From: Escherichia coli
GTDB taxonomy: Bacteria > Pseudomonadota > Gammaproteobacteria > Enterobacterales > Enterobacteriaceae
Assembly: GCF_003334765.1 (NCBI RefSeq)
Contig: NZ_QOWT01000015.1
Direction: 5' to 3' (one strand)
Length of the DNA stretch: 64,000 bases
Shown: in pieces, positions 11,213-58,847 of the stretch
Position numbering within the stretch: the first letter of the stretch is position 1
Layout of the letters: every line of letters begins with the position of its first letter
Position numbers and translations under genes: made by a program
Notes under the pieces: generated by a model
Database searches by the model: none
What the model was told of the DNA's origin: nothing
The model's input: the letters and a program-made list of their open reading frames with translations, nothing else

Positions 11213-11410
11213 AGTGTATTACCTTTAATAATTAAGTGTGCCTTTCGGCGATATGGCGTGCTTTACAGATTTTGAAGCGTTAAAGGAATGTGCACTACGA
11301 GGGGTATCAACGATAACTCTTGAAGGGACTTGCCTTACTACACTGCTTTAATGGTCTGTACGTCAAACCGTTGATGTGCATTAAGCCACGCATTGGCGGG
11401 TGATGCAACA
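11213..11410 (-). promoter_or_regulatory. cspA long 5' UTR (~159 nt) with cold box, plus core promoter
   Basis: Reverse strand reads ...GGCTTAATGCACATCAACGGTTTGACGTACAGACCATTAAAGCAG...; cold-box element TGACGTACAGA at ~11351-11366; -10 CTTAAT just upstream of the inferred transcript start (~11371). Confidence 0.75.
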
Positions 11411-11492
11411 ATTATTTTTCATATTTATGATTAATCGGTTGGAAAACGGTCCTGTCATCAGGACCGTAAACAGCAATAAAGTGGATAAAAGT

Positions 11493-12216: not shown

Positions 12217-12927
12217 ATGGCGACAGGAAAGTCCTGCTCTCGCTGGTTTGCGCCTCTTGCGGCGTTATTAATGGTAGTTAGCCTGAGTGGGTGTTTTGAT
12301 AAAGAAGGCGATCAGCGTAAAGCGTTTATCGACTTCCTGCAGAATACAGTGATGCGTAGCGGTGAACGTCTACCAACCCTGACTGCCGATCAGAAAAAAC
12401 AGTTTGGTCCTTTTGTCTCTGATTACGCGATTCTGTATGGTTATTCTCAGCAGGTGAATCAGGCGATGGATTCCGGTCTGCGCCCGGTTGTAGACAGCGT
12501 TAACGCAATTCGCGTACCGCAGGATTACGTTACGCAAAGCGGTCCGCTGCGTGAAATGAACGGTTCGCTGGGTGTGCTGGCGCAACAACTGCAAAATGCG
12601 AAGTTGCAGGCCGATGCTGCGCACTCTGCGCTAAAACAGAGCGATGATTTGAAACCGGTCTTTGATCAGGCATTCACCAAAGTGGTAACGACGCCAGCTG
12701 ATGCATTGCAACCGTTGATTCCGGCGGCACAAACTTTCACGCAACAACTGGTGATGGTTGGAGACTACATTGCTCAGCAAGGTACTCAGGTGAGCTTTGT
12801 CGCAAATGGCATCCAGTTCCCGACTTCACAGCAGGCAAGTGAATATAACAAACTGATTGCGCCATTACCGGCACAGCATCAGGCGTTTAATCAGGCCTGG
12901 ACTACAGCAGTTACTGCAACCCAATAA
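12217..12927 (+). CDS. yiaF: Lipoprotein YiaF, DUF3053 family (236 aa)
   Basis: ORF track 12097..12927; start placed at MATGKSCSRWFAPLAALLMVVSLSGC (lipobox LSGC), which has an AAGGAG SD 8 nt upstream; the 40-codon upstream extension is treated as spurious. Confidence 0.85.
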   Translation: MATGKSCSRWFAPLAALLMVVSLSGCFDKEGDQRKAFIDFLQNTVMRSGERLPTLTADQKKQFGPFVSDYAILYGYSQQVNQAMDSGLRPVVDSVNAIRVPQDYVTQSGPLREMNGSLGVLAQQLQNAKLQADAAHSALKQSDDLKPVFDQAFTKVVTTPADALQPLIPAAQTFTQQLVMVGDYIAQQGTQVSFVANGIQFPTSQQASEYNKLIAPLPAQHQAFNQAWTTAVTATQ

Positions 12928-12933
12928 AGAGTA

Positions 12934-12962
12934 AAAGCCCGAGCGATTATCGGGCTTTACTC
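12934..12962. terminator. Bidirectional terminator between convergent yiaF and ghrB
   Basis: AAAGCCCGA-GCGATTAT-CGGGCTTT hairpin in the 49 bp gap between the two stop codons. Confidence 0.6.
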
Positions 12963-12976
12963 TACGCAGTCGCGGC

Positions 12977-13951
12977 TTAGTCCGCGACGTGCGGATTCAC
13001 ACAGTTCTTCTCAACCTTTCCTTGTAACGCATCAATCAAATTATCCACGGCACAGGCGGCCATGCCATAACGCGTCTCATGGGTGGCAGATCCAATATGC
13101 GGTACTGCGACGACGTTGGCCATTGAGAGCAACGGCGAATCTACGGACAGTGGCTCTTGTTCGAAGACATCCAGCCCGGCAGCGTGAATTTCGCCTTTCT
13201 GCAATGCTGCGATCAGTGCATTTTCGTCAACCACCGGGCCACGTCCGGCATTAATGAAAATGGCGGAGGATTTCATTTTGGCGAATTGTTCTGCGCCAAA
13301 CAGATGATGCGTCTCATCAGTTAACGGCAGGATCAGGCAAACGAAATCTGACTCTTGTAACAGAGTATCCAAATCGCAGTAGCGGGCGTTGAAGCGTTCT
13401 TCTGCTTCTTTATGGTGGCGGCGCGCGTTATAGAGGATGGGCATGTTGAAGCCAAAGTGCGCACGTTGTGCCAGCGCCATGCCGATCCGTCCCATCCCGA
13501 CAATGCCCAGTGTTTTATGGTGAACGTCAGTGCCGTACCAGTCCGGGCCTATGCTCGCGGTCCATTCGCCTGCTTTTACCCGTTCTGCTACCTCCACAAC
13601 CCGACGAGCGGTAGACAACACCAGCGCCATCAGCGTATCGGCGACGGTTTCTGTTAATACGGTTGGCGTGTGCATCAGCAGAATTTTTCGGGCGGTAAGC
13701 GCATCGACATCAAAATTGTCATAGCCGACGGAGATCGTTGATGTGGCACGCAGTTTCGGCATTTTTTCCAGCAATGCGGCATTTACATTCTCGTTTGAAC
13801 CCAGTAAACCTTCAGCTTCGGCAAAAATTGCTGCATTTTGTTCGACGGTTTGTGGGCTGAGGTTTGCCACCTGGTGAACGGTGAAATGCTCTTGCAGGCG
13901 TTGCAGTAAATCATCAGGTAAGGCTTTGTAGAGGATAACGGACGGCTTCAT
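12977..13951 (-). CDS. ghrB: Glyoxylate/hydroxypyruvate reductase B (2-ketogluconate reductase), 324 aa
   Basis: ORF track 12977..13963; start at [16 protein letters not shown]...; D-2-hydroxyacid dehydrogenase with NAD-binding motif GIVGMGRIG. Confidence 0.92.
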
Positions 13952-31057: not shown

Positions 31058-31125
31058 AGAGAAAACCCCCGCACGTTGCAGGTATGCACCTGACAACACC
31101 ACGGGGGCTAATCTTGACTCTAGAC
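31058..31125 (-). ncRNA. rdlD: Rdl-type antisense regulatory RNA opposite the ldrD leader (approximate boundaries)
   Basis: Reverse strand reads GTCTAGAGTCAAGATTAGCCCCCGTGGTGTTGTCAGGTGCATACCTGCAACGTGCGGGGGTTTTCTCTC: a GC-rich hairpin plus U-run terminator ending ~31058, about 50 nt upstream of the ldrD ATG, as expected for ldr/rdl loci. Confidence 0.45.
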
Positions 31126-31173: not shown

Positions 31174-31281
31174 ATGACGTTCGCAGAGCTGGGCATGGCC
31201 TTCTGGCATGATTTAGCGGCTCCGGTCATTGCTGGCATTCTTGCCAGTATGATCGTGAACTGGCTGAACAAGCGGAAGTAA
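31174..31281 (+). CDS. ldrD: Type I toxin LdrD (35 aa)
   Basis: C-terminal 35 codons of ORF-track 31006..31281 read MTFAELGMAFWHDLAAPVIAGILASMIVNWLNKRK, the Ldr small hydrophobic toxin. Confidence 0.85.
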   Translation: MTFAELGMAFWHDLAAPVIAGILASMIVNWLNKRK

Positions 31282-33235: not shown

Positions 33236-34803
33236 GATGAGCGCTCCACAGCATCATCTAACAGTCGCATGGGTTCTGGTATTCGTCGCCAGTGGCGACC
33301 ATCGTGCTCGGCATTGATGACCGGTTTAGAACTTTGCGTTAAAGGCAGCGGCATGCCCCATTGTTCTGGGGCAAGCAAGCGCATCTGCACCAGCTCGGCA
33401 CTGATTTGATCATCTTCAAACCAGACCATACGGTTTGAGAAAATGTCGCCAGTAGGCAATGGGAAAATATGATTCAACGCGGTATCCAGATCGTTAATCC
33501 GACAGAATGAGAGAAACAGCACCAGCCGATTACCGCCAATGGTCATGATATCGCCGGTACGGTTAGGGCGACACAGCGTCAGGGCTTGTTCAACGCGGAT
33601 ACCCGGTACCGGACGTAGGGCAACCAGAACGCCTTTACCGTGGGCAGGTAATAGAGGGTTATTCATCATGTTGTTGACGGCATTACAGAACACATCCCAC
33701 TTCTGGAAACCACGCAGTTTGAGCGGCTGGGTCATTGACAGCAAGGTAGTGATATCTTCCGGCACATAGCGACTAAACTTCTGCCCTTGCACGCTTTCGA
33801 TCATCGTCAGACAACGGGAGAGTGGCGCATTCCACGGAATAACCATATTTGCACCGCAGGCCAATAACAAACGTTCATCGGTGGCGCGCAGGCTAGCGGT
33901 ATTTTCCCGCACGAGGATTTTCATCGCACTACCGCGCTGGCGACGCAGGGTATGAATGCTGCGGGCCAGTGGCTCGATTTGCGCATTTTGCTGTAAAGAA
34001 AAGACCACCGTCGCCGCCTGAGCGGTACGGGCTTCATTGAACAGGACTTCGTTATTGTTGAACAGTTGCCAGTGTTCCGATAGCGGCGGCGCACCTTCCA
34101 GTACAGCAACATTACTCAGAATGCGTTTTTCGTCGCTGCGTGGTTGGATCTCCGCCTCTTCGCTTTGAACTAATGTCCAGATACCATTTTGTTGCTGAAC
34201 GCTAAGCTGCTGACGGGCGCTGACCCCTTTTTCGTTGCACCAGAAGGCAATATCCAGCAAATGTTGGTCACCCTGAAAACGCAAACTGGCAAGACCAAAA
34301 AGTGAACGGTATTCCTCAAGCAACAATGAAAATTGTTTATCGTTATTATTTCCGGGATTAATTACCAAAAGCGAACAATGGTTTAACCTGCTCCATTTAT
34401 TCATTTTATCCAACCATGAGCGAAGCCGCTCGGCAGGAATGTTTTGCCATGCGTTATTTGCGCAAACAAGAATAAAAAGGTAATTATGGGGATCAATAGA
34501 ACACTGCAAATCACGGGTCAAATAGTATAGACCTTTTTCATGATTTAGCATTGAAAATAATTTTATTTTTTCCGGCCCTTGAGAATCATCTAATTGAAAG
34601 ATTTTCGCCGGATCGCTGTCCATGCTAATGACCGCGACGTGTGCGGTTTCAGCCTGGGATGCAATTGTTTGATTCGCCAGACTGATAGCATCTTCATGGC
34701 GATCGACGTTAAACCACCAGACGCCGCCTGCTGGCATATGTCGCAGCTCATCCCATAATGATGAGATACCGATAGAGAATACAGGGTCCACAATGTCCCT
34801 CAT
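33232..34803 (-). CDS. bcsE: Cellulose biosynthesis c-di-GMP-binding protein BcsE (523 aa)
   Basis: ORF track; [35 protein letters not shown]...; first gene of the divergent bcsEFG operon. Confidence 0.93.
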
Positions 34804-35075
34804 GTCACCATTTTGTCTGATTATCAGTTTACTAGCGAAAGCTAAGAAATAAACCTACCATTGAAATTAAAACTTATCAGATTTAGCATGTGAATCAATT
34901 TAGAAGGTCACAAGACGTGTGATTTTAGTCTTTTCGTTTTTAACTTTTTCTGTTGCGTAACGGAAAGTCAAAAAGTGAGCAAATTCCCGTCTCGCCGTAA
35001 ACAATAAACCGGCGAAATGCTCACGGTTAGAATTGTCTCATGAACGGTACGGTTATTTCATAGGGATCAAGCAAA

Positions 35076-35264
35076 ATGAATAACAATGAACCAGATACTC
35101 TGCCTGATCCCGCGATAGGCTATATCTTCCAGAATGATATTGTGGCGTTAAAGCAGGCATTTTCACTGCCTGATATTGATTATGCCGATATTTCCCAACG
35201 CGAACAGTTGGCCGCGGCATTAAAACGCTGGCCGTTGCTGGCAGAGTTTGCGCAACAAAAGTAG
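35076..35264 (+). CDS. bcsR: Cellulose biosynthesis protein BcsR (YhjR), 62 aa
   Basis: ORF track; MNNNEPDTLPDPAIGYIFQNDIVALKQAFSLPDIDYADISQREQLAAALKRWPLLAEFAQQK. Confidence 0.9.
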   Translation: MNNNEPDTLPDPAIGYIFQNDIVALKQAFSLPDIDYADISQREQLAAALKRWPLLAEFAQQK

Positions 35265-35275
35265 GGGATTGGTGA

Positions 35276-36028
35276 ATGGCCGTACTGGGATTGCAGGGGG
35301 TGCGGGGAGGCGTGGGGACAACAACCATCACCGCCGCATTAGCCTGGTCATTACAAATGTTGGGAGAAAATGTCCTGGTGGTCGATGCCTGCCCGGACAA
35401 CTTGTTGCGCCTGTCATTTAATGTTGATTTTACCCACCGTCAGGGCTGGGCCAGAGCGATGCTGGATGGCCAGGACTGGCGTGACGCTGGGTTGCGCTAC
35501 ACCTCGCAGCTCGATTTGCTGCCTTTTGGTCAGTTATCCATTGAAGAACAAGAAAATCCACAGCACTGGCAAACCCGGCTGAGCGATATTTGCTCCGGCT
35601 TACAGCAACTAAAAGCCAGCGGGCGTTACCAGTGGATTTTAATCGACTTACCGCGTGATGCCTCGCAGATAACCCACCAGCTGCTGAGTTTGTGCGATCA
35701 CTCGCTGGCAATCGTCAATGTGGATGCCAACTGCCATATCCGACTGCATCAGCAAGCGCTGCCGGATGGCGCACATATTTTGATTAATGACTTCCGTATT
35801 GGCAGTCAGGTTCAGGACGATATTTACCAGCTTTGGTTGCAAAGCCAGCGCCGATTACTGCCGATGCTCATTCATCGTGATGAAGCGATGGCTGAATGCC
35901 TGGCGGCTAAGCAACCAGTAGGTGAATATCGCAGTGATGCGCTGGCGGCTGAAGAGATACTGACGCTGGCGAACTGGTGCCTGTTGAACTACTCCGGGCT
36001 GAAAACGCCAGTCGGGAGTGCATCATGA
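35276..36028 (+). CDS. bcsQ: Cellulose biosynthesis ParA/MinD-like ATPase BcsQ, full length (250 aa)
   Basis: ORF track; MAVLGLQGVRGGVGTTTITAALAWSLQ...; deviant Walker A present; codon 6 is TTG (Leu) and the frame is open throughout. Confidence 0.93.
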   Translation: MAVLGLQGVRGGVGTTTITAALAWSLQMLGENVLVVDACPDNLLRLSFNVDFTHRQGWARAMLDGQDWRDAGLRYTSQLDLLPFGQLSIEEQENPQHWQTRLSDICSGLQQLKASGRYQWILIDLPRDASQITHQLLSLCDHSLAIVNVDANCHIRLHQQALPDGAHILINDFRIGSQVQDDIYQLWLQSQRRLLPMLIHRDEAMAECLAAKQPVGEYRSDALAAEEILTLANWCLLNYSGLKTPVGSAS

Positions 36029-38643
36029 GTATCCTGACCCGGTGGTTGCTTATCCCGCCGGTCAACGCGCGGCTTATCGGGCGTTATCGCGATTATCGTC
36101 GTCACGGTGCGTCGGCTTTCAGCGCGACGCTCGGCTGTTTCTGGATGATCCTGGCCTGGATTTTTATTCCGCTGGAGCACCCGCGCTGGCAGCGTATTCG
36201 CGCAGAACATAAAAACCTGTATCCGCATATCAACGCCTCGCGTCCGCGTCCGCTGGACCCGGTCCGTTATCTCATTCAAACATGCTGGTTATTGATCGGT
36301 GCATCGCGCAAAGAAACGCCGAAACCGCGCAGGCGGGCATTTTCAGGTCTGCAAAATATTCGTGGACGTTACCATCAATGGATGAACGAGCTGCCTGAGC
36401 GCGTTAGCCATAAAACACAGCATCTGGATGAGAAAAAAGAGCTCGGTCATTTGAGTGCCGGGGCGCGGCGGTTGATCCTCGGTATCATCGTCACCTTCTC
36501 GCTGATTCTGGCGTTAATCTGCGTTACTCAGCCGTTTAACCCGCTGGCGCAGTTTATCTTCCTGATGCTGCTGTGGGGGGTAGCGCTGATCGTACGGCGG
36601 ATGCCGGGGCGCTTCTCGGCGCTAATGTTGATTGTGCTGTCGCTGACCGTTTCTTGCCGTTATATCTGGTGGCGTTACACCTCTACGCTGAACTGGGACG
36701 ATCCGGTCAGCCTGGTGTGCGGGCTTATTCTGCTCTTCGCTGAAACGTACGCGTGGATTGTGCTGGTGCTCGGCTACTTCCAGGTAGTATGGCCGCTGAA
36801 TCGTCAGCCGGTGCCATTGCCGAAAGATATGTCGCTGTGGCCGTCGGTGGATATCTTTGTCCCGACTTACAACGAAGATCTCAACGTGGTGAAAAATACC
36901 ATTTACGCCTCGCTGGGTATCGACTGGCCGAAAGATAAGCTGAATATCTGGATCCTTGATGACGGCGGCAGGGAAGAGTTTCGCCAGTTTGCGCAAAACG
37001 TGGGGGTGAAATATATCGCCCGCACCACTCATGAACATGCGAAAGCAGGCAACATCAACAATGCGCTGAAATATGCCAAAGGCGAGTTCGTGTCGATTTT
37101 CGACTGCGACCACGTACCAACGCGATCGTTCTTGCAAATGACCATGGGCTGGTTCCTGAAAGAAAAACAGCTGGCGATGATGCAGACGCCGCACCACTTC
37201 TTCTCACCGGACCCGTTTGAACGCAACCTGGGGCGTTTCCGTAAAACGCCGAACGAAGGCACGCTGTTCTATGGTCTGGTGCAGGATGGCAACGATATGT
37301 GGGACGCCACTTTCTTCTGCGGTTCCTGTGCGGTGATTCGTCGTAAGCCGCTGGATGAAATTGGCGGCATTGCTGTCGAAACCGTGACTGAAGATGCGCA
37401 TACTTCTCTGCGGTTGCACCGTCGTGGCTATACCTCCGCGTATATGCGTATTCCGCAGGCGGCGGGGCTGGCGACCGAAAGTCTGTCGGCGCATATCGGT
37501 CAGCGTATTCGCTGGGCGCGCGGGATGGTACAAATCTTCCGTCTCGATAACCCGCTCACCGGTAAAGGGCTGAAGTTTGCTCAGCGGCTATGTTACGTCA
37601 ACGCCATGTTCCACTTCTTGTCGGGCATTCCACGGCTGATCTTCCTGACTGCGCCGCTGGCGTTCCTGCTGCTTCATGCCTACATCATCTATGCGCCAGC
37701 GTTGATGATCGCCCTATTCGTGCTGCCGCATATGATCCATGCCAGCCTGACCAACTCCAAGATCCAGGGCAAATATCGCCACTCTTTCTGGAGTGAAATC
37801 TACGAAACGGTGCTGGCGTGGTATATCGCACCACCGACGCTGGTGGCGCTGATTAACCCGCACAAAGGCAAATTTAACGTCACCGCCAAAGGTGGACTGG
37901 TGGAAGAAGAGTACGTCGACTGGGTGATCTCGCGGCCCTACATCTTCCTTGTCCTGCTCAACCTGGTGGGCGTTGCGGTAGGCATCTGGCGCTACTTCTA
38001 TGGCCCGCCAACCGAGATGCTCACCGTGGTCGTCAGTATGGTGTGGGTGTTCTACAACCTGATTGTTCTTGGCGGCGCAGTTGCGGTATCGGTAGAAAGC
38101 AAACAGGTACGCCGATCGCACCGCGTGGAGATGACGATGCCCGCGGCAATTGCCCGCGAAGATGGTCACCTCTTCTCGTGTACCGTTCAGGATTTCTCCG
38201 ACGGTGGTTTGGGGATCAAGATCAACGGTCAGGCGCAGATTCTGGAAGGGCAGAAAGTGAATCTGTTGCTTAAACGCGGTCAGCAGGAATACGTCTTCCC
38301 GACCCAGGTGGCGCGCGTGATGGGTAATGAAGTTGGGCTGAAATTAATGCCGCTCACCACCCAGCAACATATCGATTTTGTGCAGTGTACGTTTGCCCGT
38401 GCGGATACATGGGCGCTCTGGCAGGACAGCTACCCGGAAGATAAGCCGCTGGAAAGTCTGCTGGATATTCTGAAGCTCGGCTTCCGTGGCTACCGCCATC
38501 TGGCGGAGTTTGCGCCTTCTTCGGTGAAGGGCATATTCCGTGTGCTGACTTCTCTGGTTTCCTGGGTTGTATCGTTTATTCCGCGCCGCCCGGAGCGGAG
38601 CGAAACGGCACAACCATCGGATCAGGCTTTGGCTCAACAATGA
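36025..38643 (+). CDS. bcsA: Cellulose synthase catalytic subunit BcsA (872 aa)
   Basis: ORF track 35977..38643; start at MSILTRWLLIPPVNARLIGRYRDYRRHG... (ATGA overlap with the bcsQ stop); GT2 motifs including QTPH and QRIRWARG; C-terminal PilZ domain. Confidence 0.95.
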   Translation: MSILTRWLLIPPVNARLIGRYRDYRRHGASAFSATLGCFWMILAWIFIPLEHPRWQRIRAEHKNLYPHINASRPRPLDPVRYLIQTCWLLIGASRKETPKPRRRAFSGLQNIRGRYHQWMNELPERVSHKTQHLDEKKELGHLSAGARRLILGIIVTFSLILALICVTQPFNPLAQFIFLMLLWGVALIVRRMPGRFSALMLIVLSLTVSCRYIWWRYTSTLNWDDPVSLVCGLILLFAETYAWIVLVLGYFQVVWPLNRQPVPLPKDMSLWPSVDIFVPTYNEDLNVVKNTIYASLGIDWPKDKLNIWILDDGGREEFRQFAQNVGVKYIARTTHEHAKAGNINNALKYAKGEFVSIFDCDHVPTRSFLQMTMGWFLKEKQLAMMQTPHHFFSPDPFERNLGRFRKTPNEGTLFYGLVQDGNDMWDATFFCGSCAVIRRKPLDEIGGIAVETVTEDAHTSLRLHRRGYTSAYMRIPQAAGLATESLSAHIGQRIRWARGMVQIFRLDNPLTGKGLKFAQRLCYVNAMFHFLSGIPRLIFLTAPLAFLLLHAYIIYAPALMIALFVLPHMIHASLTNSKIQGKYRHSFWSEIYETVLAWYIAPPTLVALINPHKGKFNVTAKGGLVEEEYVDWVISRPYIFLVLLNLVGVAVGIWRYFYGPPTEMLTVVVSMVWVFYNLIVLGGAVAVSVESKQVRRSHRVEMTMPAAIAREDGHLFSCTVQDFSDGGLGIKINGQAQILEGQKVNLLLKRGQQEYVFPTQVARVMGNEVGLKLMPLTTQQHIDFVQCTFARADTWALWQDSYPEDKPLESLLDILKLGFRGYRHLAEFAPSSVKGIFRVLTSLVSWVVSFIPRRPERSETAQPSDQALAQQ

Positions 38644-45642: not shown

Positions 45643-47631
45643 TTGCGCGTAAGTCGCTCGTTAACAATCAAGCAGATGGCAATGGTGGCAGCCGTTGTCC
45701 TGGTGTTCGTTTTTATTTTTTGCACCGTTTTGCTGTTCCATCTGGTCCAGCAGAATCGCTATAACACGGCTACGCAACTGGAAAGCATTGCTCGCTCTGT
45801 CCGCGAACCCTTATCTTCAGCTATTTTGAAAGGCGATATTCCCGAAGCGGAAGCTATTCTTGCCAGCATTAAACCGGCAGGCGTGGTCAGCCGTGCCGAT
45901 GTAGTGCTGCCTAACCAGTTCCAGGCGCTGCGTAAAAGTTTTATTCCAGAGCGCCCGGTGCCGGTAATGGTTACTCGCCTGTTTGAGCTACCGGTTCAAA
46001 TCTCGCTGGGCGTTTACTCGCTCGAACGTCCGGCAAACCCGCAGCCAATTGCCTATCTGGTACTACAGGCGGATTCCTTCCGTATGTATAAGTTCGTGAT
46101 GAGCACCCTCTCAACGTTAGTGACCATTTACTTACTTTTGTCGCTTATCCTGACCGTCGCCATCAGCTGGTGCATTAACCGCCTGATTTTGCATCCGTTA
46201 CGCAATATTGCTCGCGAACTTAACGCCATCCCAGCCAAGGAGCTTGTTGGTCACCAACTGGCATTACCGCGTCTGCATCAGGACGATGAAATCGGTATGT
46301 TGGTGCGCAGTTACAACCTCAACCAGCAATTGCTGCAGCGCCATTATGAAGAACAGAACGAAAATGCGATGCGCTTCCCGGTGTCGGATTTGCCGAACAA
46401 AGCCTTGCTGATGGAGATGCTGGAGCAGGTTGTCGCGCGTAAACAAACCACCGCGCTGATGATCATCACCTGTGAAACCCTGCGTGATACTGCGGGCGTG
46501 CTGAAAGAGGCGCAACGAGAAATTCTGCTGCTGACGCTGGTGGAAAAACTCAAATCGGTACTGTCGCCACGTATGATCCTCGCGCAGATTAGCGGTTATG
46601 ACTTTGCTGTCATTGCCAACGGTGTACAGGAACCGTGGCACGCAATCACCTTAGGTCAGCAAGTGCTCACTATCATGAGCGAGCGCCTGCCGATTGAACG
46701 TATTCAACTCCGTCCGCACTGTAGCATTGGCGTGGCGATGTTCTACGGCGATCTCACCGCCGAACAGCTTTACAGTCGCGCTATTTCTGCGGCATTTACC
46801 GCTCGCCATAAAGGCAAGAATCAGATTCAGTTCTTTGATCCGCAGCAGATGGAAGCCGCCCAGAAGCGGTTGACGGAAGAGAGCGATATCCTTAATGCAC
46901 TGGAAAATCATCAGTTTGCTATTTGGTTACAGCCACAGGTCGAGATGACCAGCGGTAAACTGGTCAGTGCGGAAGTGTTACTGCGTATCCAGCAACCGGA
47001 TGGCAGTTGGGACCTGCCGGATGGCTTAATCGATCGCATTGAGTGCTGTGGGCTGATGGTTACCGTCGGTCACTGGGTGCTGGAAGAGTCCTGTCGATTG
47101 CTTGCAGCCTGGCAAGAGCGCGGCATTATGCTGCCCTTGTCGGTAAACCTCTCTGCGCTGCAACTGATGCACCCGAATATGGTGGCGGATATGCTGGAAC
47201 TGTTAACCCGCTATCGCATTCAGCCGGGAACACTGATTCTGGAAGTGACAGAAAGCCGACGTATTGACGACCCTCATGCTGCGGTGGCAATCCTCCGTCC
47301 GCTGCGCAATGCCGGAGTTCGGGTGGCGCTGGATGATTTCGGCATGGGCTACGCAGGGCTGCGTCAGCTGCAGCATATGAAATCGTTGCCAATCGACGTA
47401 CTGAAAATCGACAAAATGTTTGTTGAAGGCTTGCCGGGAGATAGCAGCATGATTGCTGCAATTATCATGCTGGCGCAGAGCCTGAACTTACAAATGATTG
47501 CCGAAGGCGTGGAGACTGAAGCACAACGCGACTGGCTGGCAAAAGCGGGCGTTGGTATTGCCCAGGGCTTCCTTTTTGCTCGCCCACTCCCTATTGAAAT
47601 CTTCGAAGAGAGTTACCTGGAAGAAAAGTAG
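45643..47631 (+). CDS. pdeK: c-di-GMP phosphodiesterase PdeK (YhjK): HAMP, degenerate GGDEF and EAL domains (up to 662 aa)
   Basis: ORF track; N-terminal TM/HAMP region; EAL-domain motifs in the C-terminus (...[10 protein letters not shown]..., ...[10 protein letters not shown]). Exact start uncertain. Confidence 0.88.
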
Positions 47632-49320: not shown

Positions 49321-50817
49321 ATGCAGGGCACAAAAATTCGACTTTTAGCGGGCGGTTTGCTGATGATGGCCACTGCTGGCTATGTGCAGGCAGATGCGCT
49401 CCAGCCTGATCCAGCATGGCAACAGGGGACGCTTTCCAACGGTTTACAGTGGCAAGTGCTGACCACCCCCCAGCGTCCCAGCGATCGTGTTGAAATTCGC
49501 CTGCTGGTTAATACCGGTTCGCTCGCCGAAAGTACACAACAGAGCGGTTACAGTCACGCCATCCCTCGTATTGCGCTAACGCAAAGCGGTGGCCTTGACG
49601 CAGCACAGGCGCGTTCATTGTGGCAGCAGGGGATCGACCCTAAACGCCCGATGCCGCCGGTAATTGTCTCTTATGACACCACGCTGTTTAATCTGAGTTT
49701 GCCCAATAACCGTAACGATTTGCTGAAAGAAGCGCTCTCTTATCTGGCAAATGCCACTGGCAAATTGACCATCACACCAGAAACCATCAACCACGCGCTG
49801 CAAAGTCAGGACATGGTGGCAACCTGGCCTGCCGATACTAAAGAGGGCTGGTGGCGCTATCGTCTGAAAGGGTCAACCTTGTTAGGTCACGATCCTGCCG
49901 ATCCGCTGAAACAACCCGTTGAAGCGGAAAAAATTAAAGATTTCTATCAGAAATGGTACACCCCGGATGCAATGACGCTACTGGTGGTGGGAAACGTGGA
50001 TGCGCGCTCGGTTGTCGACCAAATAAACAAAACGTTTGGCGAACTGAAAGGCAAACGTGAAACGCCAGCTCCGGTGCCGACGCTTTCTCCGCTGCGTGCG
50101 GAAGCGGTGAGTATTATGACTGACGCGGTGCGTCAGGACCGGTTATCTATCATGTGGGATACGCCGTGGCAGCCGATTCGTGAATCAGCCGCACTGCTGC
50201 GCTACTGGCGTGCGGACCTGGCCCGCGAGGCGCTGTTCTGGCATGTTCAGCAAGCGTTAAGTGCCAGTAACAGCAAAGACATCGGTCTTGGATTTGACTG
50301 CCGTGTGCTGTATCTGCGTGCGCAGTGTGCCATCAACATCGAATCACCAAACGACAAGCTGAACAGCAACCTTAATCTGGTGGCGCGTGAACTGGCGAAG
50401 GTTCGCGATAAAGGTCTGCCGGAAGAAGAGTTCAATGCGTTAGTGGCGCAAAAGAAACTGGAGCTGCAGAAACTGTTTGCCGCCTATGCACGAGCTGATA
50501 CCGATATTCTGATGGGTCAGCGGATGCGTTCGTTGCAAAATCAGGTTGTCGATATCGCGCCGGAGCAATATCAGAAACTGCGGCAGGATTTCCTTAATAG
50601 CCTGACGGTAGAGATGTTAAATCAGGATCTGCGTCAACAGTTGTCGAATGATATGGCGTTAATACTGCTGCAGCCGAAAGGCGAGCCGGAATTTAACATG
50701 AAAGCGTTGCAGGCGGTCTGGGATCAAATCATGGCCCCATCTACCGCCGCTGCGACCACCTCTGTCGCCACGGATGACGTACATCCTGAAGTGACGGATA
50801 TTCCACCTGCACAGTAA
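49321..50817 (+). CDS. yhjJ: Periplasmic M16-family (pitrilysin-like) protein YhjJ, probably non-catalytic (498 aa)
   Basis: ORF track; signal peptide MQGTKIRLLAGGLLMMATAGYVQA; M16-like fold with no obvious HxxEH zinc motif in the N-terminal part. Confidence 0.88.
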   Translation: MQGTKIRLLAGGLLMMATAGYVQADALQPDPAWQQGTLSNGLQWQVLTTPQRPSDRVEIRLLVNTGSLAESTQQSGYSHAIPRIALTQSGGLDAAQARSLWQQGIDPKRPMPPVIVSYDTTLFNLSLPNNRNDLLKEALSYLANATGKLTITPETINHALQSQDMVATWPADTKEGWWRYRLKGSTLLGHDPADPLKQPVEAEKIKDFYQKWYTPDAMTLLVVGNVDARSVVDQINKTFGELKGKRETPAPVPTLSPLRAEAVSIMTDAVRQDRLSIMWDTPWQPIRESAALLRYWRADLAREALFWHVQQALSASNSKDIGLGFDCRVLYLRAQCAINIESPNDKLNSNLNLVARELAKVRDKGLPEEEFNALVAQKKLELQKLFAAYARADTDILMGQRMRSLQNQVVDIAPEQYQKLRQDFLNSLTVEMLNQDLRQQLSNDMALILLQPKGEPEFNMKALQAVWDQIMAPSTAAATTSVATDDVHPEVTDIPPAQ

Positions 50818-50912
50818 TGCCTGATGGTGATGAGTTAGCACAACCATCAGGTATTTATGGATGAGCTGGATAGAGGGGTAACACTTTATCCAGCCTTTTG
50901 CATATGCTGCGT

Positions 50913-51842
50913 TTATGCTGGCATCGCCTCACGCGGGATAATCGCGCCGCGATACTGAATAACGGTACTTGCGGTCAGGTGCCCACGTTTCGCCGCGTCT
51001 TCCGCGCTGCCGCCTGTCAGACGTACCGCCAGATAACCGGCACTGAAAGAGTCGCCAGCTGCGGTGGTATCGATCACTTTTTCTTTCGGCAGTTTCACCG
51101 CCGGAACATCCACTAACCCTTCGCCAGCAATGGACACCAGGCAAGAATCCGCCCCGCGTTTCACCACCACTTCTTTCACGCCCGCGTTATGGGTGCGCGC
51201 AATGACGTCTTCCACCGGCTGTTGACCCCACAGCGCGTCTTCGTCGTCCAGCGTCAGGAAGGCGATATCCGTGCATTCCAGCATTTGTTGGTACACCTGC
51301 TGTGTCTCTTCTTTGCTGGCCCACAGGCGCGGACGATAGTTATTGTCGAAAATCACTTTTCCGCCGTTGGCGCGGCATTCGCGCAGCAGGGAAAGCAGCT
51401 TTTCGCGGCTGGTCGGGCTTAAGATCGCCAGGCTAATCCCGCTCAGGTAGAGATAATCGAAATTCGCCAGCTCTTCGCAAATCGCCGCAGACTGCTCACT
51501 CTCCAGCCAGAATTTGGCGGCGGCTTCGTTCCGCCAGTAGTAGAACGTACGCTCGCCGGTGCTGTCGGTTTCAATGTAGTAAAGGCCCGGTAGACGGTTT
51601 TCCATCCGTTGGGTCAGGGAAGTATCAACGTTCTCGCCGTGCCAGGCGTCCAGCATCTGCTGGCTAAAACTGTCCGTTCCCAGCGCCGTTACGTAATGAA
51701 CGGTTAATGCCGCAGGATCGACCTGACGGGCGATATAGACGGAAGTGTTCAGGGTATCGCCGCCGAAACCGCGCTTAACGTCCGCGCCTTTCTCGGAAAG
51801 CTCAATCATGCATTCGCCAATCACGGCAATCTTTTTGGACAT
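50913..51842 (-). CDS. kdgK: 2-dehydro-3-deoxygluconokinase (309 aa)
   Basis: ORF track 50913..52190; start placed at MSKKIAVIGECMIELSEKG... (PfkB ribokinase-family N-terminus); the 116-codon upstream extension is treated as spurious because it spans the divergent promoter region. Confidence 0.92.
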   Translation of the reverse strand: MSKKIAVIGECMIELSEKGADVKRGFGGDTLNTSVYIARQVDPAALTVHYVTALGTDSFSQQMLDAWHGENVDTSLTQRMENRLPGLYYIETDSTGERTFYYWRNEAAAKFWLESEQSAAICEELANFDYLYLSGISLAILSPTSREKLLSLLRECRANGGKVIFDNNYRPRLWASKEETQQVYQQMLECTDIAFLTLDDEDALWGQQPVEDVIARTHNAGVKEVVVKRGADSCLVSIAGEGLVDVPAVKLPKEKVIDTTAAGDSFSAGYLAVRLTGGSAEDAAKRGHLTASTVIQYRGAIIPREAMPA

Positions 51843-51909
51843 AGTCGTGAACCTGATCTGTAAAAAATTAGCGTTAGTTTGCGCTGTGGTGGTTTGCTGG
51901 TCAACCATA

Positions 51910-51928
51910 TTAAAACAGTGTTCCATTA
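51910..51928. promoter_or_regulatory. Putative KdgR operator (TTAAAACAGTGTTCCATTA) upstream of kdgK
   Basis: Imperfect palindrome resembling the KdgR box (AAAACA-N-TGTTTCATT), ~70-85 bp upstream of the kdgK ATG. Confidence 0.4.
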
Positions 51929-51998
51929 TTTTTTTGAGCCAGAACGTATTCCTGAAAGATTCCGTTGTGGAGTGAGGAAATTTACCCCGGCCAGGCGG

Positions 51999-52025
51999 TA
52001 AAGTTCTGCCCTTACGCGCCGATAA
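51999..52025 (+). promoter_or_regulatory. Sigma-28 (FliA) promoter of pdeH: TAAAGTTC-N11-GCCGATAA
   Basis: Near-perfect match to the flagellar class 3 consensus TAAAGTTT-N11-GCCGATAA, ~50 bp upstream of the pdeH ATG. Confidence 0.75.
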
Positions 52026-52073
52026 TCTTTGTCGAGTCCGGGCAGCATCACTTTTAAACACAGGACATCTTTG

Positions 52074-52841
52074 ATGATAAGGCAGGTTATCCAGCGAATA
52101 AGCAACCCTGAAGCAAGCATCGAGAGCTTGCAGGAACGGCGTTTTTGGTTGCAGTGTGAGCGTGCTTACACCTGGCAGCCGATCTATCAAACATGCGGGC
52201 GGTTAATGGCCGTGGAGCTATTAACGGTGGTCACGCATCCCTTGAACCCTTCGCAACGCCTGCCGCCGGATCGCTATTTTACTGAAATCACCGTCAGCCA
52301 TCGGATGGAGGTTGTGAAAGAGCAGATTGATTTGCTGGCGCAAAAAGCCGACTTCTTTATAGAGCACGGCCTGCTGGCATCGGTCAATATTGATGGCCCT
52401 ACGCTCATCGCCCTGCGTCAGCAACCAAAAATCCTGCGCCAGATTGAGCGTCTTCCCTGGCTGCGTTTCGAACTGGTGGAGCATATCCGTCTGCCGAAAG
52501 ATTCAACCTTTGCCTCGATGTGTGAATTTGGCCCGCTGTGGCTGGATGATTTTGGTACCGGGATGGCAAATTTCTCTGCGCTAAGTGAAGTGCGTTATGA
52601 CTACATCAAAATCGCGCGAGAACTGTTTGTGATGCTGCGTCAGTCGCCGGAAGGACGCACACTCTTTTCTCAGCTTTTACATCTAATGAATCGCTATTGT
52701 CGCGGGGTGATTGTCGAGGGCGTAGAAACGCCGGAAGAGTGGCGTGATGTTCAGAACTCGCCCGCATTCGCCGCACAAGGCTGGTTTCTTTCACGCCCGG
52801 CACCGATAGAAACGCTGAATACGGCGGTTCTGGCGCTATAA
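52074..52841 (+). CDS. pdeH: c-di-GMP phosphodiesterase PdeH (YhjH), stand-alone EAL domain (255 aa)
   Basis: ORF track 52029..52841; start at MIRQVIQRISNPEASIESLQERRFWLQ...; EAL-domain motifs (ELLTVV, DDFGTG). Confidence 0.92.
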   Translation: MIRQVIQRISNPEASIESLQERRFWLQCERAYTWQPIYQTCGRLMAVELLTVVTHPLNPSQRLPPDRYFTEITVSHRMEVVKEQIDLLAQKADFFIEHGLLASVNIDGPTLIALRQQPKILRQIERLPWLRFELVEHIRLPKDSTFASMCEFGPLWLDDFGTGMANFSALSEVRYDYIKIARELFVMLRQSPEGRTLFSQLLHLMNRYCRGVIVEGVETPEEWRDVQNSPAFAAQGWFLSRPAPIETLNTAVLAL

Positions 52842-52910
52842 GCTGCCTCATTTTCCGCCTGGCTGGACTATCTTTAGGACTGGCACAGGAAGAATATGAG
52901 GAAGCGAACG

Positions 52911-54971
52911 ATGAGCAAGGCAGGCAAAATAACCGCTGCGATTTCAGGGGCTTTCTTGTTGTTGATTGTCGTGGCGATCATTTTGATTGCAACTTTTGAC
53001 TGGAATCGACTCAAACCGACTATCAACCAGAAAGTCTCTGCGGAGTTGAATCGTCCGTTCGCTATCCGTGGCGATCTGGGCGTGGTGTGGGAGCGGCAAA
53101 AACAAGAAACTGGCTGGCGCAGCTGGGTGCCGTGGCCCCATGTACACGCGGAAGACATCATTCTTGGCAATCCACCGGATATTCCCGAAGTCACGATGGT
53201 GCATTTGCCACGCGTAGAGGCAACGCTGGCCCCGCTGGCGCTGCTGACCAAAACGGTCTGGCTGCCGTGGATCAAGCTCGAAAAGCCCGACGCGCGCCTG
53301 ATTCGCCTCTCTGAAAAGAACAATAACTGGACGTTTAATCTTGCCAACGATGATAACAAAGACGCGAATGCAAAGCCGTCGGCATGGTCGTTTCGGCTGG
53401 ATAATATTCTTTTCGATCAAGGGCGGATCGCCATTGATGACAAAGTAAGCAAAGCGGATCTGGAGATTTTTGTTGATCCCTTAGGCAAGCCGCTGCCGTT
53501 CAGCGAAGTTACTGGATCGAAAGGTAAAGCGGATAAAGAAAAGGTGGGCGATTACGTTTTTGGCCTGAAGGCGCAGGGACGATATAACGGTGAACCGCTC
53601 ACGGGTACGGGAAAAATAGGCGGTATGCTGGCGCTGCGTGGCGAAGGGACGCCGTTTCCGGTACAGGCTGATTTCCGCTCTGGTAACACCCGTGTTGCTT
53701 TTGATGGCGTCGTGAATGACCCAATGAAGATGGGCGGTGTCGATTTACGGCTTAAATTTTCTGGCGATTCACTGGGTGATCTCTATGAACTGACGGGCGT
53801 TCTGCTGCCCGATACCCCGCCGTTTGAAACGGATGGTCGGCTGGTAGCGAAAATCGACACTGAAAAATCGTCGGTCTTTGATTATCGCGGTTTTAATGGG
53901 CGAATTGGTGATAGCGATATCCACGGTTCTCTGGTCTACACCACCGGAAAGCCACGACCAAAACTGGAAGGTGATGTCGAGTCGCGGCAATTGCGGCTGG
54001 CGGACCTGGGACCGTTGATTGGCGTTGATTCCGGGAAAGGGGCAGAAAAGTCGAAACGGTCTGAACAGAAGAAGGGCGAAAAAAGCGTTCAGCCTGCGGG
54101 CAAAGTGCTGCCTTATGACCGCTTCGAAACCGATAAATGGGACGTTATGGATGCCGATGTTCGCTTCAAAGGGCGGCGCATTGAGCATGGCAGTAGCCTG
54201 CCGATTAGCGATCTTTCTACTCATATCATCCTCAAAAATGCTGACCTGCGCCTGCAACCGCTGAAATTTGGCATGGCGGGCGGCAGCATTGCGGCGAATA
54301 TTCATCTGGAAGGCGATAAAAAGCCGATGCAGGGGCGGGCAGATATTCAGGCTCGTCGACTGAAACTGAAAGAACTGATGCCCGATGTGGAACTGATGCA
54401 GAAGACGCTGGGGGAAATGAACGGTGACGCGGAACTACGCGGTAGCGGTAACTCGGTGGCGGCACTTTTAGGCAACAGTAACGGCAACCTGAAACTGTTG
54501 ATGAATGACGGGCTGGTGAGCCGCAACCTGATGGAGATTGTTGGGCTGAATGTCGGCAACTACATTGTCGGTGCGATATTTGGTGATGATGAGGTGCGGG
54601 TGAACTGCGCGGCGGCGAATCTGAATATTGCCAACGGCGTGGCGCGCCCGCAGATTTTTGCTTTCGATACTGAGAACGCGTTGATTAATGTTACCGGCAC
54701 GGCAAGTTTTGCTTCGGAACAGCTGGATTTGACTATTGATCCGGAGAGTAAAGGAATTCGGATTATCACACTGCGTTCGCCGCTGTATGTGCGGGGGACG
54801 TTTAAAAATCCGCAGGCTGGGGTGAAAGCCGGACCGCTGATTGCCCGTGGTGCTGTTGCTGCGGCACTGGCAACGCTGGTAACACCGGCGGCGGCGTTAC
54901 TGGCACTGATCTCACCTTCCGAAGGGGAGGCTAATCAGTGTCGGACGATTTTGTCGCAGATGAAGAAGTGA
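52911..54971 (+). CDS. yhjG: AsmA-family inner-membrane-anchored periplasmic protein YhjG (686 aa)
   Basis: ORF track 52896..54971; start at MSKAGKITAAISGAFLLLIVVAIILIATFDWN (N-terminal TM anchor). Confidence 0.88.
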   Translation: MSKAGKITAAISGAFLLLIVVAIILIATFDWNRLKPTINQKVSAELNRPFAIRGDLGVVWERQKQETGWRSWVPWPHVHAEDIILGNPPDIPEVTMVHLPRVEATLAPLALLTKTVWLPWIKLEKPDARLIRLSEKNNNWTFNLANDDNKDANAKPSAWSFRLDNILFDQGRIAIDDKVSKADLEIFVDPLGKPLPFSEVTGSKGKADKEKVGDYVFGLKAQGRYNGEPLTGTGKIGGMLALRGEGTPFPVQADFRSGNTRVAFDGVVNDPMKMGGVDLRLKFSGDSLGDLYELTGVLLPDTPPFETDGRLVAKIDTEKSSVFDYRGFNGRIGDSDIHGSLVYTTGKPRPKLEGDVESRQLRLADLGPLIGVDSGKGAEKSKRSEQKKGEKSVQPAGKVLPYDRFETDKWDVMDADVRFKGRRIEHGSSLPISDLSTHIILKNADLRLQPLKFGMAGGSIAANIHLEGDKKPMQGRADIQARRLKLKELMPDVELMQKTLGEMNGDAELRGSGNSVAALLGNSNGNLKLLMNDGLVSRNLMEIVGLNVGNYIVGAIFGDDEVRVNCAAANLNIANGVARPQIFAFDTENALINVTGTASFASEQLDLTIDPESKGIRIITLRSPLYVRGTFKNPQAGVKAGPLIARGAVAAALATLVTPAAALLALISPSEGEANQCRTILSQMKK

Positions 54972-55042
54972 TGATAATTGCCGGATGTCTGACATCCGGC
55001 AATTAAACAGATTTAGATTGTTGGCAAAGTGTGCTTTGTTCA

Positions 55043-55140
55043 TGCCGGATGCGGCGTGAACGCCTTATCCGGCCTACAAATCCTTGCGAATTCAATATAT
55101 TGTATGGAAATTCAGGCCTGATAAGCGTAGCGCATCAGGC
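55043..55140. repeat. REP / BIME element between convergent yhjG and yhjE
   Basis: GCCGGATGCGGCGTGAACGCCTTATCCGGCCTAC ... AGGCCTGATAAGCGTAGCGCATCAGGC; a further small hairpin GCCGGATGTCTGACATCCGGC lies at ~54980-55000. Confidence 0.8.
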
Positions 55141-55152
55141 TTTTCACTCTTA

Positions 55153-56475
55153 TTACAACGACTGATGTCGCGTCTCATGGGTCAGCAGCAGGGCGATTAA
55201 CGTCAAGCCAGCCATCGCCGCCAGATATAACCCCACCGCACCTAGCCCGTAGTTAGTCTGCAACCAGGCTGCGATATATGGCGCAACGGAAGCCCCGAGA
55301 ATCGACGCTACGTTGTAAGAGAACGATGCTCCGGTGTAACGCACTTCTGTCGGAAACAGCTCTGGTAACAGCGCACCCATTGGCCCGAAGGTCAGACCCA
55401 TCAGACTTAACCCCAGCAGCAGGAAGGCAAAAACCAGAATCGGGTTGCCAGAACCGAGCAGTGGGTTAAAGGCGAACAGCGCGAACAGGATGATCAGCGT
55501 GGTGATGATTACCATGCTTTTACGGCGACCAAAGGCATCAGCCAGTAATCCAGCGACTGGCACCATCACGCCAAAACCAATAACTGCCATCATCAACATC
55601 CACAACACTTCGTTACGCGGCAGGCCAAGCCCAACTGGCGCGGCGGCGGTACTAAAGGTCATAGAGTAGACCGTCATGATGTAAAACAGCGTATAGGTTG
55701 CCAGCATAATGAACGTACCCAGTACGGTTACGCGAACATGTTTGGTCAGCAGCGTACCCAGCGGGATCTTCACCTGTTTTTTCGCTTTAGCGACTTTCTC
55801 AAACACCGGCGACTCATGCAGCGACACGCGAACATACAGGCCGATAATGACCAGCACCGCCGAGAAGATAAATGGCACACGCCAGCCCCAGCTCATAAAC
55901 TGCTCGTCGGTCAGTAGCCAGGAAAGCAGCAAGAAAGTGCCATTGGCAAAGAAGAAGCCAATCGGTGCGCCCAGCTGCGGAAAGGAGCCATACAGTGCAC
56001 GTTTGCGCGGTGGGGCGTTTTCAGTCGCCAGCAGCGCCGCGCCGCCCCATTCACCGCCTAAGCCCAGACCCTGACCAAATCGAGCCAGCGCCAGCAGCAG
56101 CGGGGCGAAAATACCAATCGTGGCATAGCCCGGCAGCAGACCAATCACCACGGTCGAAATCCCCATCGTTAGCAACGAGGCGACCAGCGTCGCTTTACGC
56201 CCAACGCGATCGCCAAAATGACCAAAAACGGCAGAGCCAATGGGGCGCGCGACGAAGGCGATGGCGAAGGTGGCGAGCGACTGTAGCGTTGCTGCCGTAG
56301 GATCGCCCTGCGGGAAGAAGATATGCGGAAACACAATAACGGCCGCAGTGGCGTAAATGTAAAAGTCGAAGAACTCAATGGCTGTGCCAATGAGAGAGGC
56401 GACAAGGACTTTATTACGCGAGTTGATCGGCGTGTATTCTTGCTCGTGGTCGAGTGTTGTGGCTGTTGCTTGCAT
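55153..56475 (-). CDS. yhjE: MFS transporter YhjE (metabolite:H+ symporter family), 440 aa
   Basis: ORF track; 12 predicted TM segments; MQATATTLDHEQEYTPINSRNKVLVASLIGTAIEFFDFYIY... Confidence 0.9.
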   Translation of the reverse strand: MQATATTLDHEQEYTPINSRNKVLVASLIGTAIEFFDFYIYATAAVIVFPHIFFPQGDPTAATLQSLATFAIAFVARPIGSAVFGHFGDRVGRKATLVASLLTMGISTVVIGLLPGYATIGIFAPLLLALARFGQGLGLGGEWGGAALLATENAPPRKRALYGSFPQLGAPIGFFFANGTFLLLSWLLTDEQFMSWGWRVPFIFSAVLVIIGLYVRVSLHESPVFEKVAKAKKQVKIPLGTLLTKHVRVTVLGTFIMLATYTLFYIMTVYSMTFSTAAAPVGLGLPRNEVLWMLMMAVIGFGVMVPVAGLLADAFGRRKSMVIITTLIILFALFAFNPLLGSGNPILVFAFLLLGLSLMGLTFGPMGALLPELFPTEVRYTGASFSYNVASILGASVAPYIAAWLQTNYGLGAVGLYLAAMAGLTLIALLLTHETRHQSL

Positions 56476-56786
56476 AATCTTTTCTTATTTTTTGGCTAAC
56501 GAATAGCCATATTACGCACAGCAAAAGTGATATTTCAATGTGTAACAAATCGCGGAAATGGTCAAAAATCAGGCAAAAAGGGGATAATGTTTAGGCCAGT
56601 GATTTTTCTTCTATGAAATGCTTCACATAATTTTATAAATAGTGGATAAAACTGGTTTCAGGTTAAATAAAAGTTACCAACTGGATTTATATGCTGGGGT
56701 TATGAGTTGGAATGAAATTGTTTGCTCCCAAATAGATGGCTGAAGAGGCTCTGGGGACGAGTTTCAAGAGGTTATGTGCGCATTAT

Positions 56787-56885
56787 AGCCGGATGCGATG
56801 CTGGCGCATCTTATCCGGCCTACGGGGAGCCAGGCCGAATAAAATCGTATGCCGGATAAGGCGTTTACGCCGCATCCGGCCTATT
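56787..56885. repeat. REP / BIME element between yhjE and yhjD
   Basis: GCCGGATGCGATGCTGGCGCATCTTATCCGGCCTAC ... GCCGGATAAGGCGTTTACGCCGCATCCGGCC; abuts the yhjD stop codon. Confidence 0.8.
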
Positions 56886-57899
56886 TTAAGGCTGCGTTTT
56901 CCCCGGCATTCGCGGGTCGTCTTTATATTCGGCGGTGGCAATCCACGCCGCGCAAAACAGCGTCAAACGGGCGAAGAAGTAGAAAAATGCCATCAGCCCC
57001 AGCACGGAACCAAATGCTGCGCCAGAGGGGGATTTCATCAACGATGGCAGGGTGTAGGTCATCACGATTTTAATCACTTCAAAACCAATAGCAGCCAGAA
57101 ATGTTCCGCGAATCAGGGCTTTTTTGCGCGGACGGTGGCGCGGCAACCGCCAGAAGATCCAGAAGAAAAGCAGATAGTTGGCGAAGATGGAAATCGCCAG
57201 GCCAATCAATCGCCACGTCGGTTTCAGCCACTCAATGCTGTTCAGGTGCAGGGCGCTAATAATCATTTGCTGCGCCGAACCGGCAACCGAGGTGATCGAA
57301 AGCGTCACAATCAGCGCAATCAACAAACCAATCAGCGAAATAAAATCTCGCAGATATTTTACCCAGAACTTCTCCTGATCTTGCGGCGAGCGTTCCCAGA
57401 CATCGCGCGACTGGGCACGAATCGCTTCACGCAGGTTACCCATCCAGTTGATGCCGGAATAAAGTGCCACCGCCAGGCCGACAAGCCCTACAGTCGTACG
57501 CTGCTGAACGGCGGTGTTGATGGTGTTTTTCAACGTGGCGGCTAGCGTCGGATCGCTGATGTTTTGCAGAATTTTGTCGAAGATATCCTGTAGCAACATC
57601 GGATGGGAGGCCAGCACAAAGCCCCCTGCGGCAAACGACACCATCAAAATTGGTATCATCGACAAAAATGAGAAATAGGTGATAGCCGCACCAAACTGGT
57701 TACCCAGCCGATCGTTAAAGCGTTCTGTCGCGCGAATCAGGTGCGCAATAACCGGTTGGCGTTGGACTTTTTCGGCAGTGGTGGTGACGGTTTCCAGCGC
57801 CTGGCTAACTTTGCTGCCTTTCTCGCTATTATCCAACGGCTTAATCGGCTCGTGCTCCAGATCCTGGATGGGACGTTTGATCTCGTTTTCCTGCGTCAT
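56886..57899 (-). CDS. yhjD: Inner membrane protein YhjD, YihY/virulence-factor BrkB family (337 aa)
   Basis: ORF track; MTQENEIKRPIQDLEHEPIKPL..., then a polytopic membrane domain. Confidence 0.88.
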   Translation of the reverse strand: MTQENEIKRPIQDLEHEPIKPLDNSEKGSKVSQALETVTTTAEKVQRQPVIAHLIRATERFNDRLGNQFGAAITYFSFLSMIPILMVSFAAGGFVLASHPMLLQDIFDKILQNISDPTLAATLKNTINTAVQQRTTVGLVGLAVALYSGINWMGNLREAIRAQSRDVWERSPQDQEKFWVKYLRDFISLIGLLIALIVTLSITSVAGSAQQMIISALHLNSIEWLKPTWRLIGLAISIFANYLLFFWIFWRLPRHRPRKKALIRGTFLAAIGFEVIKIVMTYTLPSLMKSPSGAAFGSVLGLMAFFYFFARLTLFCAAWIATAEYKDDPRMPGKTQP

Positions 57900-57947
57900 C
57901 CGCTCTTTTGTCCTTCTGTCGTGGTCATTCTTAAAAAGTATAGTCGG

Positions 57948-58847
57948 TCAGTCCAGGTACTCTTTCATTACGCCAGCCAGCCACTGCATAAACAGGTTTA
58001 CACGCCGGGAAAGCTCCCGACGCTGCGGATAAACCAGCGAAAGGGAGAGCGGCTCGGCACGGTAGCCAGGTAATACTTCAATAAGCCGCCCGGCACGCAG
58101 GGCTTCGCGCACGGCAATGCGCGGGATCTGAATAATCCCCAGACCGGCAAGACCGGCGGTGAGATAGTTTTCGCTACTGTTTACCGTCAACATGCCGCCA
58201 GACTTAAACCACTGGACGCCATTAACGCTGGCAACCTCAAAACCTAACGGATGTACACCCAGGTGCGGTGTATAACGCACTATTGCGTGTGAAGTCAGAT
58301 CATCGGGGCTTTGCGGATAACCAAAGCGCGTCAGATAGTGCGGACTGGCACAGTTGACCATGGTCAGTTTGCCGAGGGGACGGGCGATAACGCCATCTTC
58401 CGGTAACGCGCCAGTGCGTATCACGCAATCAAAACCATCATGAAGAATATCTACCGGACGGTCATGGCTACTCAGTTCCAGCTCAATTCCCGGATGCAGA
58501 TAGAGAAATTCCGACAGGCGCGGCAGTAACAGGCTTTTCGCGATTCCTGGCGGGATGTCGATGCGTAATTTACCGCTGATACTGGTGGCATCCTGTTGAA
58601 ACAGACCGTCCAGTTCGCTGAGATTACTCAACACATCTTTTGCTCGTTGATAATAGGTCATGCCTTCTGGCGTGAGTTTGACCCGTCGCGTGGTGCGCTG
58701 GAGAAGCTGGGTGCCAAGTTGATGTTCCAGTGCCTGTATCTGGCGCGAAACACTTCCCTTTGGCAAAGCAAAGAAATCCGCTGCGCGGGAAAAACTTTCC
58801 AGCTCCGCGACTTTGATGAACAACTGCATTGCGTGAATTTTATCCAT
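57948..58847 (-). CDS. yhjC: LysR-family transcriptional regulator YhjC (299 aa)
   Basis: ORF track 57948..58919; start at MDKIHAMQLFIKVAELESFSRAADFFALPKGSVSRQIQALE (LysR HTH); the upstream 24 codons are treated as spurious. Confidence 0.9.
   Translation of the reverse strand: MDKIHAMQLFIKVAELESFSRAADFFALPKGSVSRQIQALEHQLGTQLLQRTTRRVKLTPEGMTYYQRAKDVLSNLSELDGLFQQDATSISGKLRIDIPPGIAKSLLLPRLSEFLYLHPGIELELSSHDRPVDILHDGFDCVIRTGALPEDGVIARPLGKLTMVNCASPHYLTRFGYPQSPDDLTSHAIVRYTPHLGVHPLGFEVASVNGVQWFKSGGMLTVNSSENYLTAGLAGLGIIQIPRIAVREALRAGRLIEVLPGYRAEPLSLSLVYPQRRELSRRVNLFMQWLAGVMKEYLD

Follow-up and report, generated by a model that had tools for sequence, protein, structure and literature searches.

The stretch of Escherichia coli DNA analysed here (64,000 nucleotides, hereafter the window) carries the genes bcsRQABZC together with a divergent minus-strand group, bcsEFG, in the canonical two-operon layout and collinear with the RefSeq annotation of K-12 and of NCTC9038 (Table 1). 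All nine genes are full length, and their translated open reading frames are free of internal stops. Each of the nine products scores above the curated cut-off set for its NCBIfam model, with an end-to-end match in seven cases; BcsR and BcsG are not among these seven, though the whole model is covered for both. The models used are of the equivalog type, except that for BcsR, which is of the exception type. The ATG of bcsA overlaps the TGA of bcsQ as ATGA. Between yhjV and bcsG there is also a type I toxin-antitoxin pair, identical to that of K-12, composed of ldrD (31174-31281, plus strand) and the antisense RNA rdlD (31060-31125, minus strand).

Table 1. Features of the bcs locus and neighbouring c-di-GMP genes, in window coordinates
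Feature	Position	Strand	Evidence
bcsG, phosphoethanolamine transferase modifying cellulose, 559 aa	31368..33047	-	identical to K-12; TIGR03368 817.5 bits, cut-off 410
bcsF, membrane protein, 63 aa	33044..33235	-	identical to K-12; TIGR03493 116.4 bits, cut-off 56
bcsE, c-di-GMP-binding GIL-domain protein, 523 aa	33232..34803	-	identical to K-12; NF011619 1-523/523, 1190 bits
divergent bcsE/bcsR intergenic control region, 272 bp	34804..35075	.	zero base differences vs K-12
bcsR (yhjR), BcsQ partner, 62 aa	35076..35264	+	identical to K-12; NF040717 75.2 bits, cut-off 46
bcsQ, ParA/MinD-like ATPase, 250 aa	35276..36028	+	matches to NF007460 and to 6YBU/6YAR
bcsQ codon 6, TTG (Leu)	35291..35293	+	TAG in K-12
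bcsA, catalytic cellulose synthase with PilZ domain, 872 aa	36025..38643	+	identical to K-12; NF008558 1-872/872, 1794 bits
bcsB, periplasmic co-polymerase subunit, 779 aa	38654..40993	+	intact; NF008325 1386 bits; 3 residues differ from K-12
bcsZ, periplasmic GH8 endoglucanase, 368 aa	41000..42106	+	identical to K-12; NF008305 591 bits
bcsC, TPR and outer-membrane beta-barrel export subunit, 1157 aa	42088..45561	+	protein identical to K-12; NF008520 1-1157/1157, 2199 bits
pdeK (yhjK, annotated hmsP), GAPES3-HAMP-degenerate GGDEF-EAL phosphodiesterase	45643..47631	+	Pfam domains; NF008807 781 bits
pdeH (yhjH), EAL-only c-di-GMP phosphodiesterase, 255 aa	52074..52841	+	RefSeq annotation at the matching NCTC9038 position

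The bcsQ frame opens with an ATG at 35276 and runs uninterrupted to its end (open reading frame listing), the plus strand beginning ATG GCC GTA CTG GGA TTG CAG GGG GTG. The N-terminus of the product reads MAVLGLQGVRGGVGTTT, with leucine at codon 6 and no stop before residue 17, so that the first strand and the deviant Walker A loop, whose motif GVRGGVGTT starts at residue 8, are both encoded. The protein matches the BcsQ equivalog NF007460 over residues 1-250 of 250 (542.9 bits against a cut-off of 399) and, as in the E. coli-type Bcs secretion system, the solved BcsQ chains 6YBU and 6YAR (~560 bits over 1-250), with MinD and ParA appearing as distant matches only. Because the matches to both the family model and the solved chains span residues 1-250, we conclude that bcsQ is a genuine gene, not an open reading frame that arose by chance. 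The sequence-only reading had described a continuous, ParA/MinD-like protein of 250 aa with TTG as its sixth codon; the coordinates, length and codon are exact on direct reading and translation, and the assignment fits a full-length BcsQ with distant similarity to MinD. In published work, BcsQ is a ParA/MinD-like ATPase whose partners are BcsR and BcsE.

An ungapped comparison of window positions 23000-48100 with K-12 MG1655 (NZ_CP174267.1) revealed 7 substitutions over 25,101 bp (99.97% identity) and not a single indel. At one of these positions, 35292, the T of the window corresponds to an A in K-12, where the codon reads TAG instead of TTG, and translation of the K-12 bcsQ gives a single internal stop, located at codon 6. 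Three others (39147, 39205 and 39323) are missense differences in bcsB, and the remaining three are synonymous, at 29661 (yhjV), 43746 (bcsC) and 46818 (pdeK). Four of the seven differences are thus non-synonymous transversions inside the bcs operon. A K-12 stop at about codon 6 of bcsQ had been put forward in the sequence-only reading, along with the loss of cellulose that it causes, and both statements are borne out, the former by the A at 35292 in MG1655 and the latter by strain AR3110, a W3110 derivative that became cellulose-proficient when codon 6 of bcsQ was changed from TAG to TTG (PMC7397504, PMC5014196). The stop has been reported to abrogate expression of bcsQ and of the downstream bcsA (PMC6685106). 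In the RefSeq annotation of K-12, bcsQ is given as a normal 242-aa CDS starting from a GTG after the TAG (12301-13029 in the MG1655 segment compared, equivalent to window 35300-36028) and bears no pseudogene flag, so that a known nonsense mutation is hidden by the annotation.

The consequences of the codon 6 difference can be envisaged as follows. With TTG in place, the full 250-aa BcsQ would be translatable, and ribosomes finishing bcsQ would reach the ATGA junction and may couple into bcsA, as suggested by the gene layout and by the review statement. In K-12, translation would end at the TAG, two residues short of the P-loop, leaving ~730 nt of bcsQ untranslated, which would explain the reported loss of bcsA expression, while a restart at the downstream GTG would yield a BcsQ devoid of the first strand of its fold.

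The remaining components of the locus had also been claimed to be full length (bcsR, bcsA, bcsB, bcsZ, bcsC and bcsEFG), and lengths, family models and open frames all agree with this; a frameshift or nonsense mutation elsewhere in bcsA, bcsB, bcsC, bcsE or bcsG was looked for by translation and against the family models, and none was found. Seven of the nine Bcs proteins are identical to those of K-12, the two exceptions being BcsB, with three residues different, and BcsQ, whose K-12 gene has the stop. Motifs expected in BcsA are DxD, TED and QxxRW of the glycosyltransferase and RxxxR and DxSxxG of the PilZ c-di-GMP site. The window protein has DCD at 360, TED at 455 and QRIRW at 493, as well as FFCGS, followed by RRSHR at 696 and DFSDGG at 723 in the PilZ domain. 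BcsG retains Ser278, which we take to be the catalytic serine, as well as Cys243, His396, Glu442 and His443, presumably the metal ligands. The R415-TGD motif of BcsE, assumed here to be its RxGD c-di-GMP site, is present, as are Glu55 and Asp243 of BcsZ, both of which we believe to be required residues. A frameshift at codon 448 of bcsE rendered the O104:H4 outbreak strain cellulose-negative (PMC4287979). This type of frameshift was sought at codon 448 in the window and is absent, the codon there being CCA with three Cs. A scan for promoter-like patterns over 34700-36200 returned two sites, a number at the shuffle expectation, with none above it in the bcsE-bcsR region; four terminator-like hairpins were detected in the same interval, against 1.3 expected.

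The BcsB protein of the window has T165, N184 and R224, compared with S165, K184 and S224 in K-12. The same three window residues recur in four other strains: PSS-04 (a phylogroup-A isolate), NC101 (a B2 strain), an O157:H7 strain and GN04592 (a blood isolate). The K-12 version of a 191-bp stretch of bcsB, at no more than one mismatch, occurs in 357 genomes, with all others at or below 98.4% identity; it is about as frequent as the bcsQ TAG (349 genomes), its sampled carriers are laboratory strains, and its changes amount to three clustered missense transversions within 177 bp. On these sequence comparisons, the window form of BcsB is the ancestral or species consensus and that of K-12 the derived outlier. 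Neither version is obviously defective, since cellulose is produced in AR3110, whose BcsB is that of K-12.

The same differences bear on the idea that the locus harbours a hidden defect (a harmful missense change or a lesion in its regulation) that makes it non-functional in spite of its open frames. The window BcsB does depart by three residues from the K-12/AR3110 protein, which has been validated experimentally. However, it is K-12 that stands apart at these positions, no difference from K-12 exists in the other seven proteins or in the bcsE-bcsR control region, and the surrounding 25-kb segment is shared unchanged with many natural isolates (see below), all of which makes such a defect very improbable. 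The converse can also be entertained, namely that the K-12 changes affect how BcsB functions or how it docks DgcC and PdeK, and that AR3110 is consequently not fully wild type. PdeK and DgcC are reported to dock on BcsB, where they act as a local c-di-GMP sink and source for BcsA (PMC7397504). Our literature search turned up nothing relevant on these missense changes in the BcsB of K-12, and we put this idea forward as speculation that is probably wrong. Were it true, loci like that of the window would be a better reference than AR3110, the standard E. coli model for cellulose.

A 1.1-kb query around bcsQ found matches, all of them chromosomal, in 5,304 of 5,426 complete E. coli genomes, with K-12 MG1655 99.9% identical. 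When 57-mers were used as queries, the exact TTG form was present in 3,553 of the 5,426 genomes and the exact TAG form in 349, the four sampled carriers of the latter being laboratory strains; ~1,340 other genomes differ from the window 57-mer by one or two further bases. Among the matches listed at even steps for the TAG 57-mer, four were at 100%, 40 at 98.2% and 15 at 96.5%, and the last two groups fit TTG plus another polymorphism, judging by their identity values. Many natural isolates, including NCTC9038, FDAARGOS_1337 and isolates from swine and chicken, match window positions 25001-50000 as a single piece at 100% identity. Given this prevalence of TTG and the identity with many natural isolates, we conclude that an intact bcsQ is the default state of the species and an ordinary natural allele.

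Two natural isolates whose bcsQ is identical to that of the window carry IS1 insertions in this locus. In PSS-04 (10997-11694 of the segment compared) the element lies at the 5' end of bcsE, of which a shortened CDS is left, and for M159-1 the annotation places an IS1 transposase inside the matched bcsR/bcsQ/bcsA stretch. These insertions look like independent natural routes to cellulose loss.

As judged from the RefSeq annotation of near-identical genomes, the window runs opposite to the K-12 map and extends from xylG to ccp inclusive, its high end holding the start of gadA. The chromosome is of phylogroup A and very closely related to K-12, without being K-12 itself. Positions 50001-64000 are 99.96% identical to NCTC9038 over the aligned sequence, with two gap openings in 14 kb (BLAST). 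The one inspected is a single-base homopolymer difference at ~59011, in the yhjC(rcdB)-yhjB spacer (C5 in the window and C4 in NCTC9038), and has no evident consequence.

At the other end of the window, the hokA/sok type I toxin-antitoxin locus (about 10558-10813) is uninterrupted. An IS150 element of 1,451 bp sits just upstream of hokA in DH1, a member of the K-12 lineage, and in NCTC9038; it is absent in the window at 10634-10636, and the Rfam match to sok spans the empty site. The empty site is common, being found in about 2,817 of the 5,426 genomes.

Near-identity to K-12 (7 SNPs in 25 kb), and the fact that the codon put into AR3110 was this very TTG, raise the question of whether the window could come from an engineered derivative of the AR3110 type, with codon 6 repaired in the laboratory. 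Such a strain would keep the K-12 alleles elsewhere, but at three bcsB codons the window follows the consensus and not K-12, and it shares two further SNPs relative to K-12 with natural isolates and is without the IS150 beside hokA that is present in K-12-lineage strains such as DH1. We consider an engineered origin extremely improbable and reject it on the strength of the non-K-12 bcsB alleles and the empty IS150 site.

The sequence-only reading had stated that no diguanylate cyclase is encoded in the window, and two lines of evidence concur: in a six-frame scan of the 64 kb, none of the long open frames contained a GGDEF or GGEEF motif, and neither a diguanylate cyclase nor csgD is present in the RefSeq annotation of near-identical sequence. 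The sole GGDEF domain is that of PdeK, which scores weakly (42 bits), reads SGYDF, and has been described as degenerate (PMC7397504). The EAL domain of PdeK is intact, with the motif EVLLR, and the gene adjoins the 3' end of bcsC. Two negative inputs into c-di-GMP, pdeK and pdeH, are encoded in the window, in addition to the absence of a cyclase to which the earlier reading was confined.

One alternative concerns the predicted phenotype alone and not the identification of the locus: the strain may be cellulose-negative under standard conditions in spite of an intact locus, for a reason lying outside the window (rpoS, mlrA, csgD, dgcC or high phosphodiesterase activity). Consistent with this are the lack of an annotated cyclase or csgD in the window, the presence of both phosphodiesterase genes, and the specific requirement for DgcC in the activation of cellulose synthase (PMC7397504). 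Against it, the window shows no sign of such a defect, and in the close relative K-12 repair of bcsQ alone sufficed for cellulose. We regard a cellulose-negative phenotype as somewhat unlikely.

Taken together, we are highly confident that the window contains a natural, uninterrupted cellulose secretion locus of the E. coli type (bcsRQABZC with divergent bcsEFG), with the ancestral TTG at codon 6 of bcsQ, in a phylogroup-A relative of K-12; nothing in the sequence speaks against this explanation. In comparison with AR3110, gene order, spacing and codon 6 are the same, and the BcsR, Q, A, Z, C, E, F and G proteins are identical; AR3110 differs in the three K-12 residues of BcsB and at the three synonymous positions in yhjV, bcsC and pdeK, and the window differs from it in being without IS150 at hokA. 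Laboratory K-12 strains with the bcsQ stop (MG1655, W3110, MC4100) share the locus and its surroundings to the same 99.97% over 25 kb, and differ in the stop at codon 6 and in being cellulose-negative. The window also resembles the Bcs secretion system of strains 1094 and UTI89 and of Salmonella in its full set of bcsRQABZC and bcsEFG and in BcsG as the phosphoethanolamine (pEtN) transferase; the differences are confined to the usual allelic variation between phylogroups, and no structural difference was found.

Since the other Bcs proteins are identical either to those of K-12 or to the species consensus, the locus should, at the level of the genes, be at least equivalent to that of AR3110, which makes pEtN-cellulose. 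Competence for pEtN-cellulose is thus supported at the genotype level, and the phenotype is a conditional prediction, because rpoS, mlrA, csgD and dgcC lie outside the window: production would still need c-di-GMP supplied by DgcC under the control of RpoS, MlrA and CsgD.

An intact bcsQ within an intact locus is an already known and common natural state. The bcsQ codon 6 base and the three bcsB codons make handy markers of the K-12 lineage and can be used to tell natural phylogroup-A isolates apart from laboratory K-12. The finding is of little importance beyond annotation, its further use being in the prediction of biofilm (rdar) behaviour: like most natural E. coli, the strain has the genetic capacity to make pEtN-cellulose.
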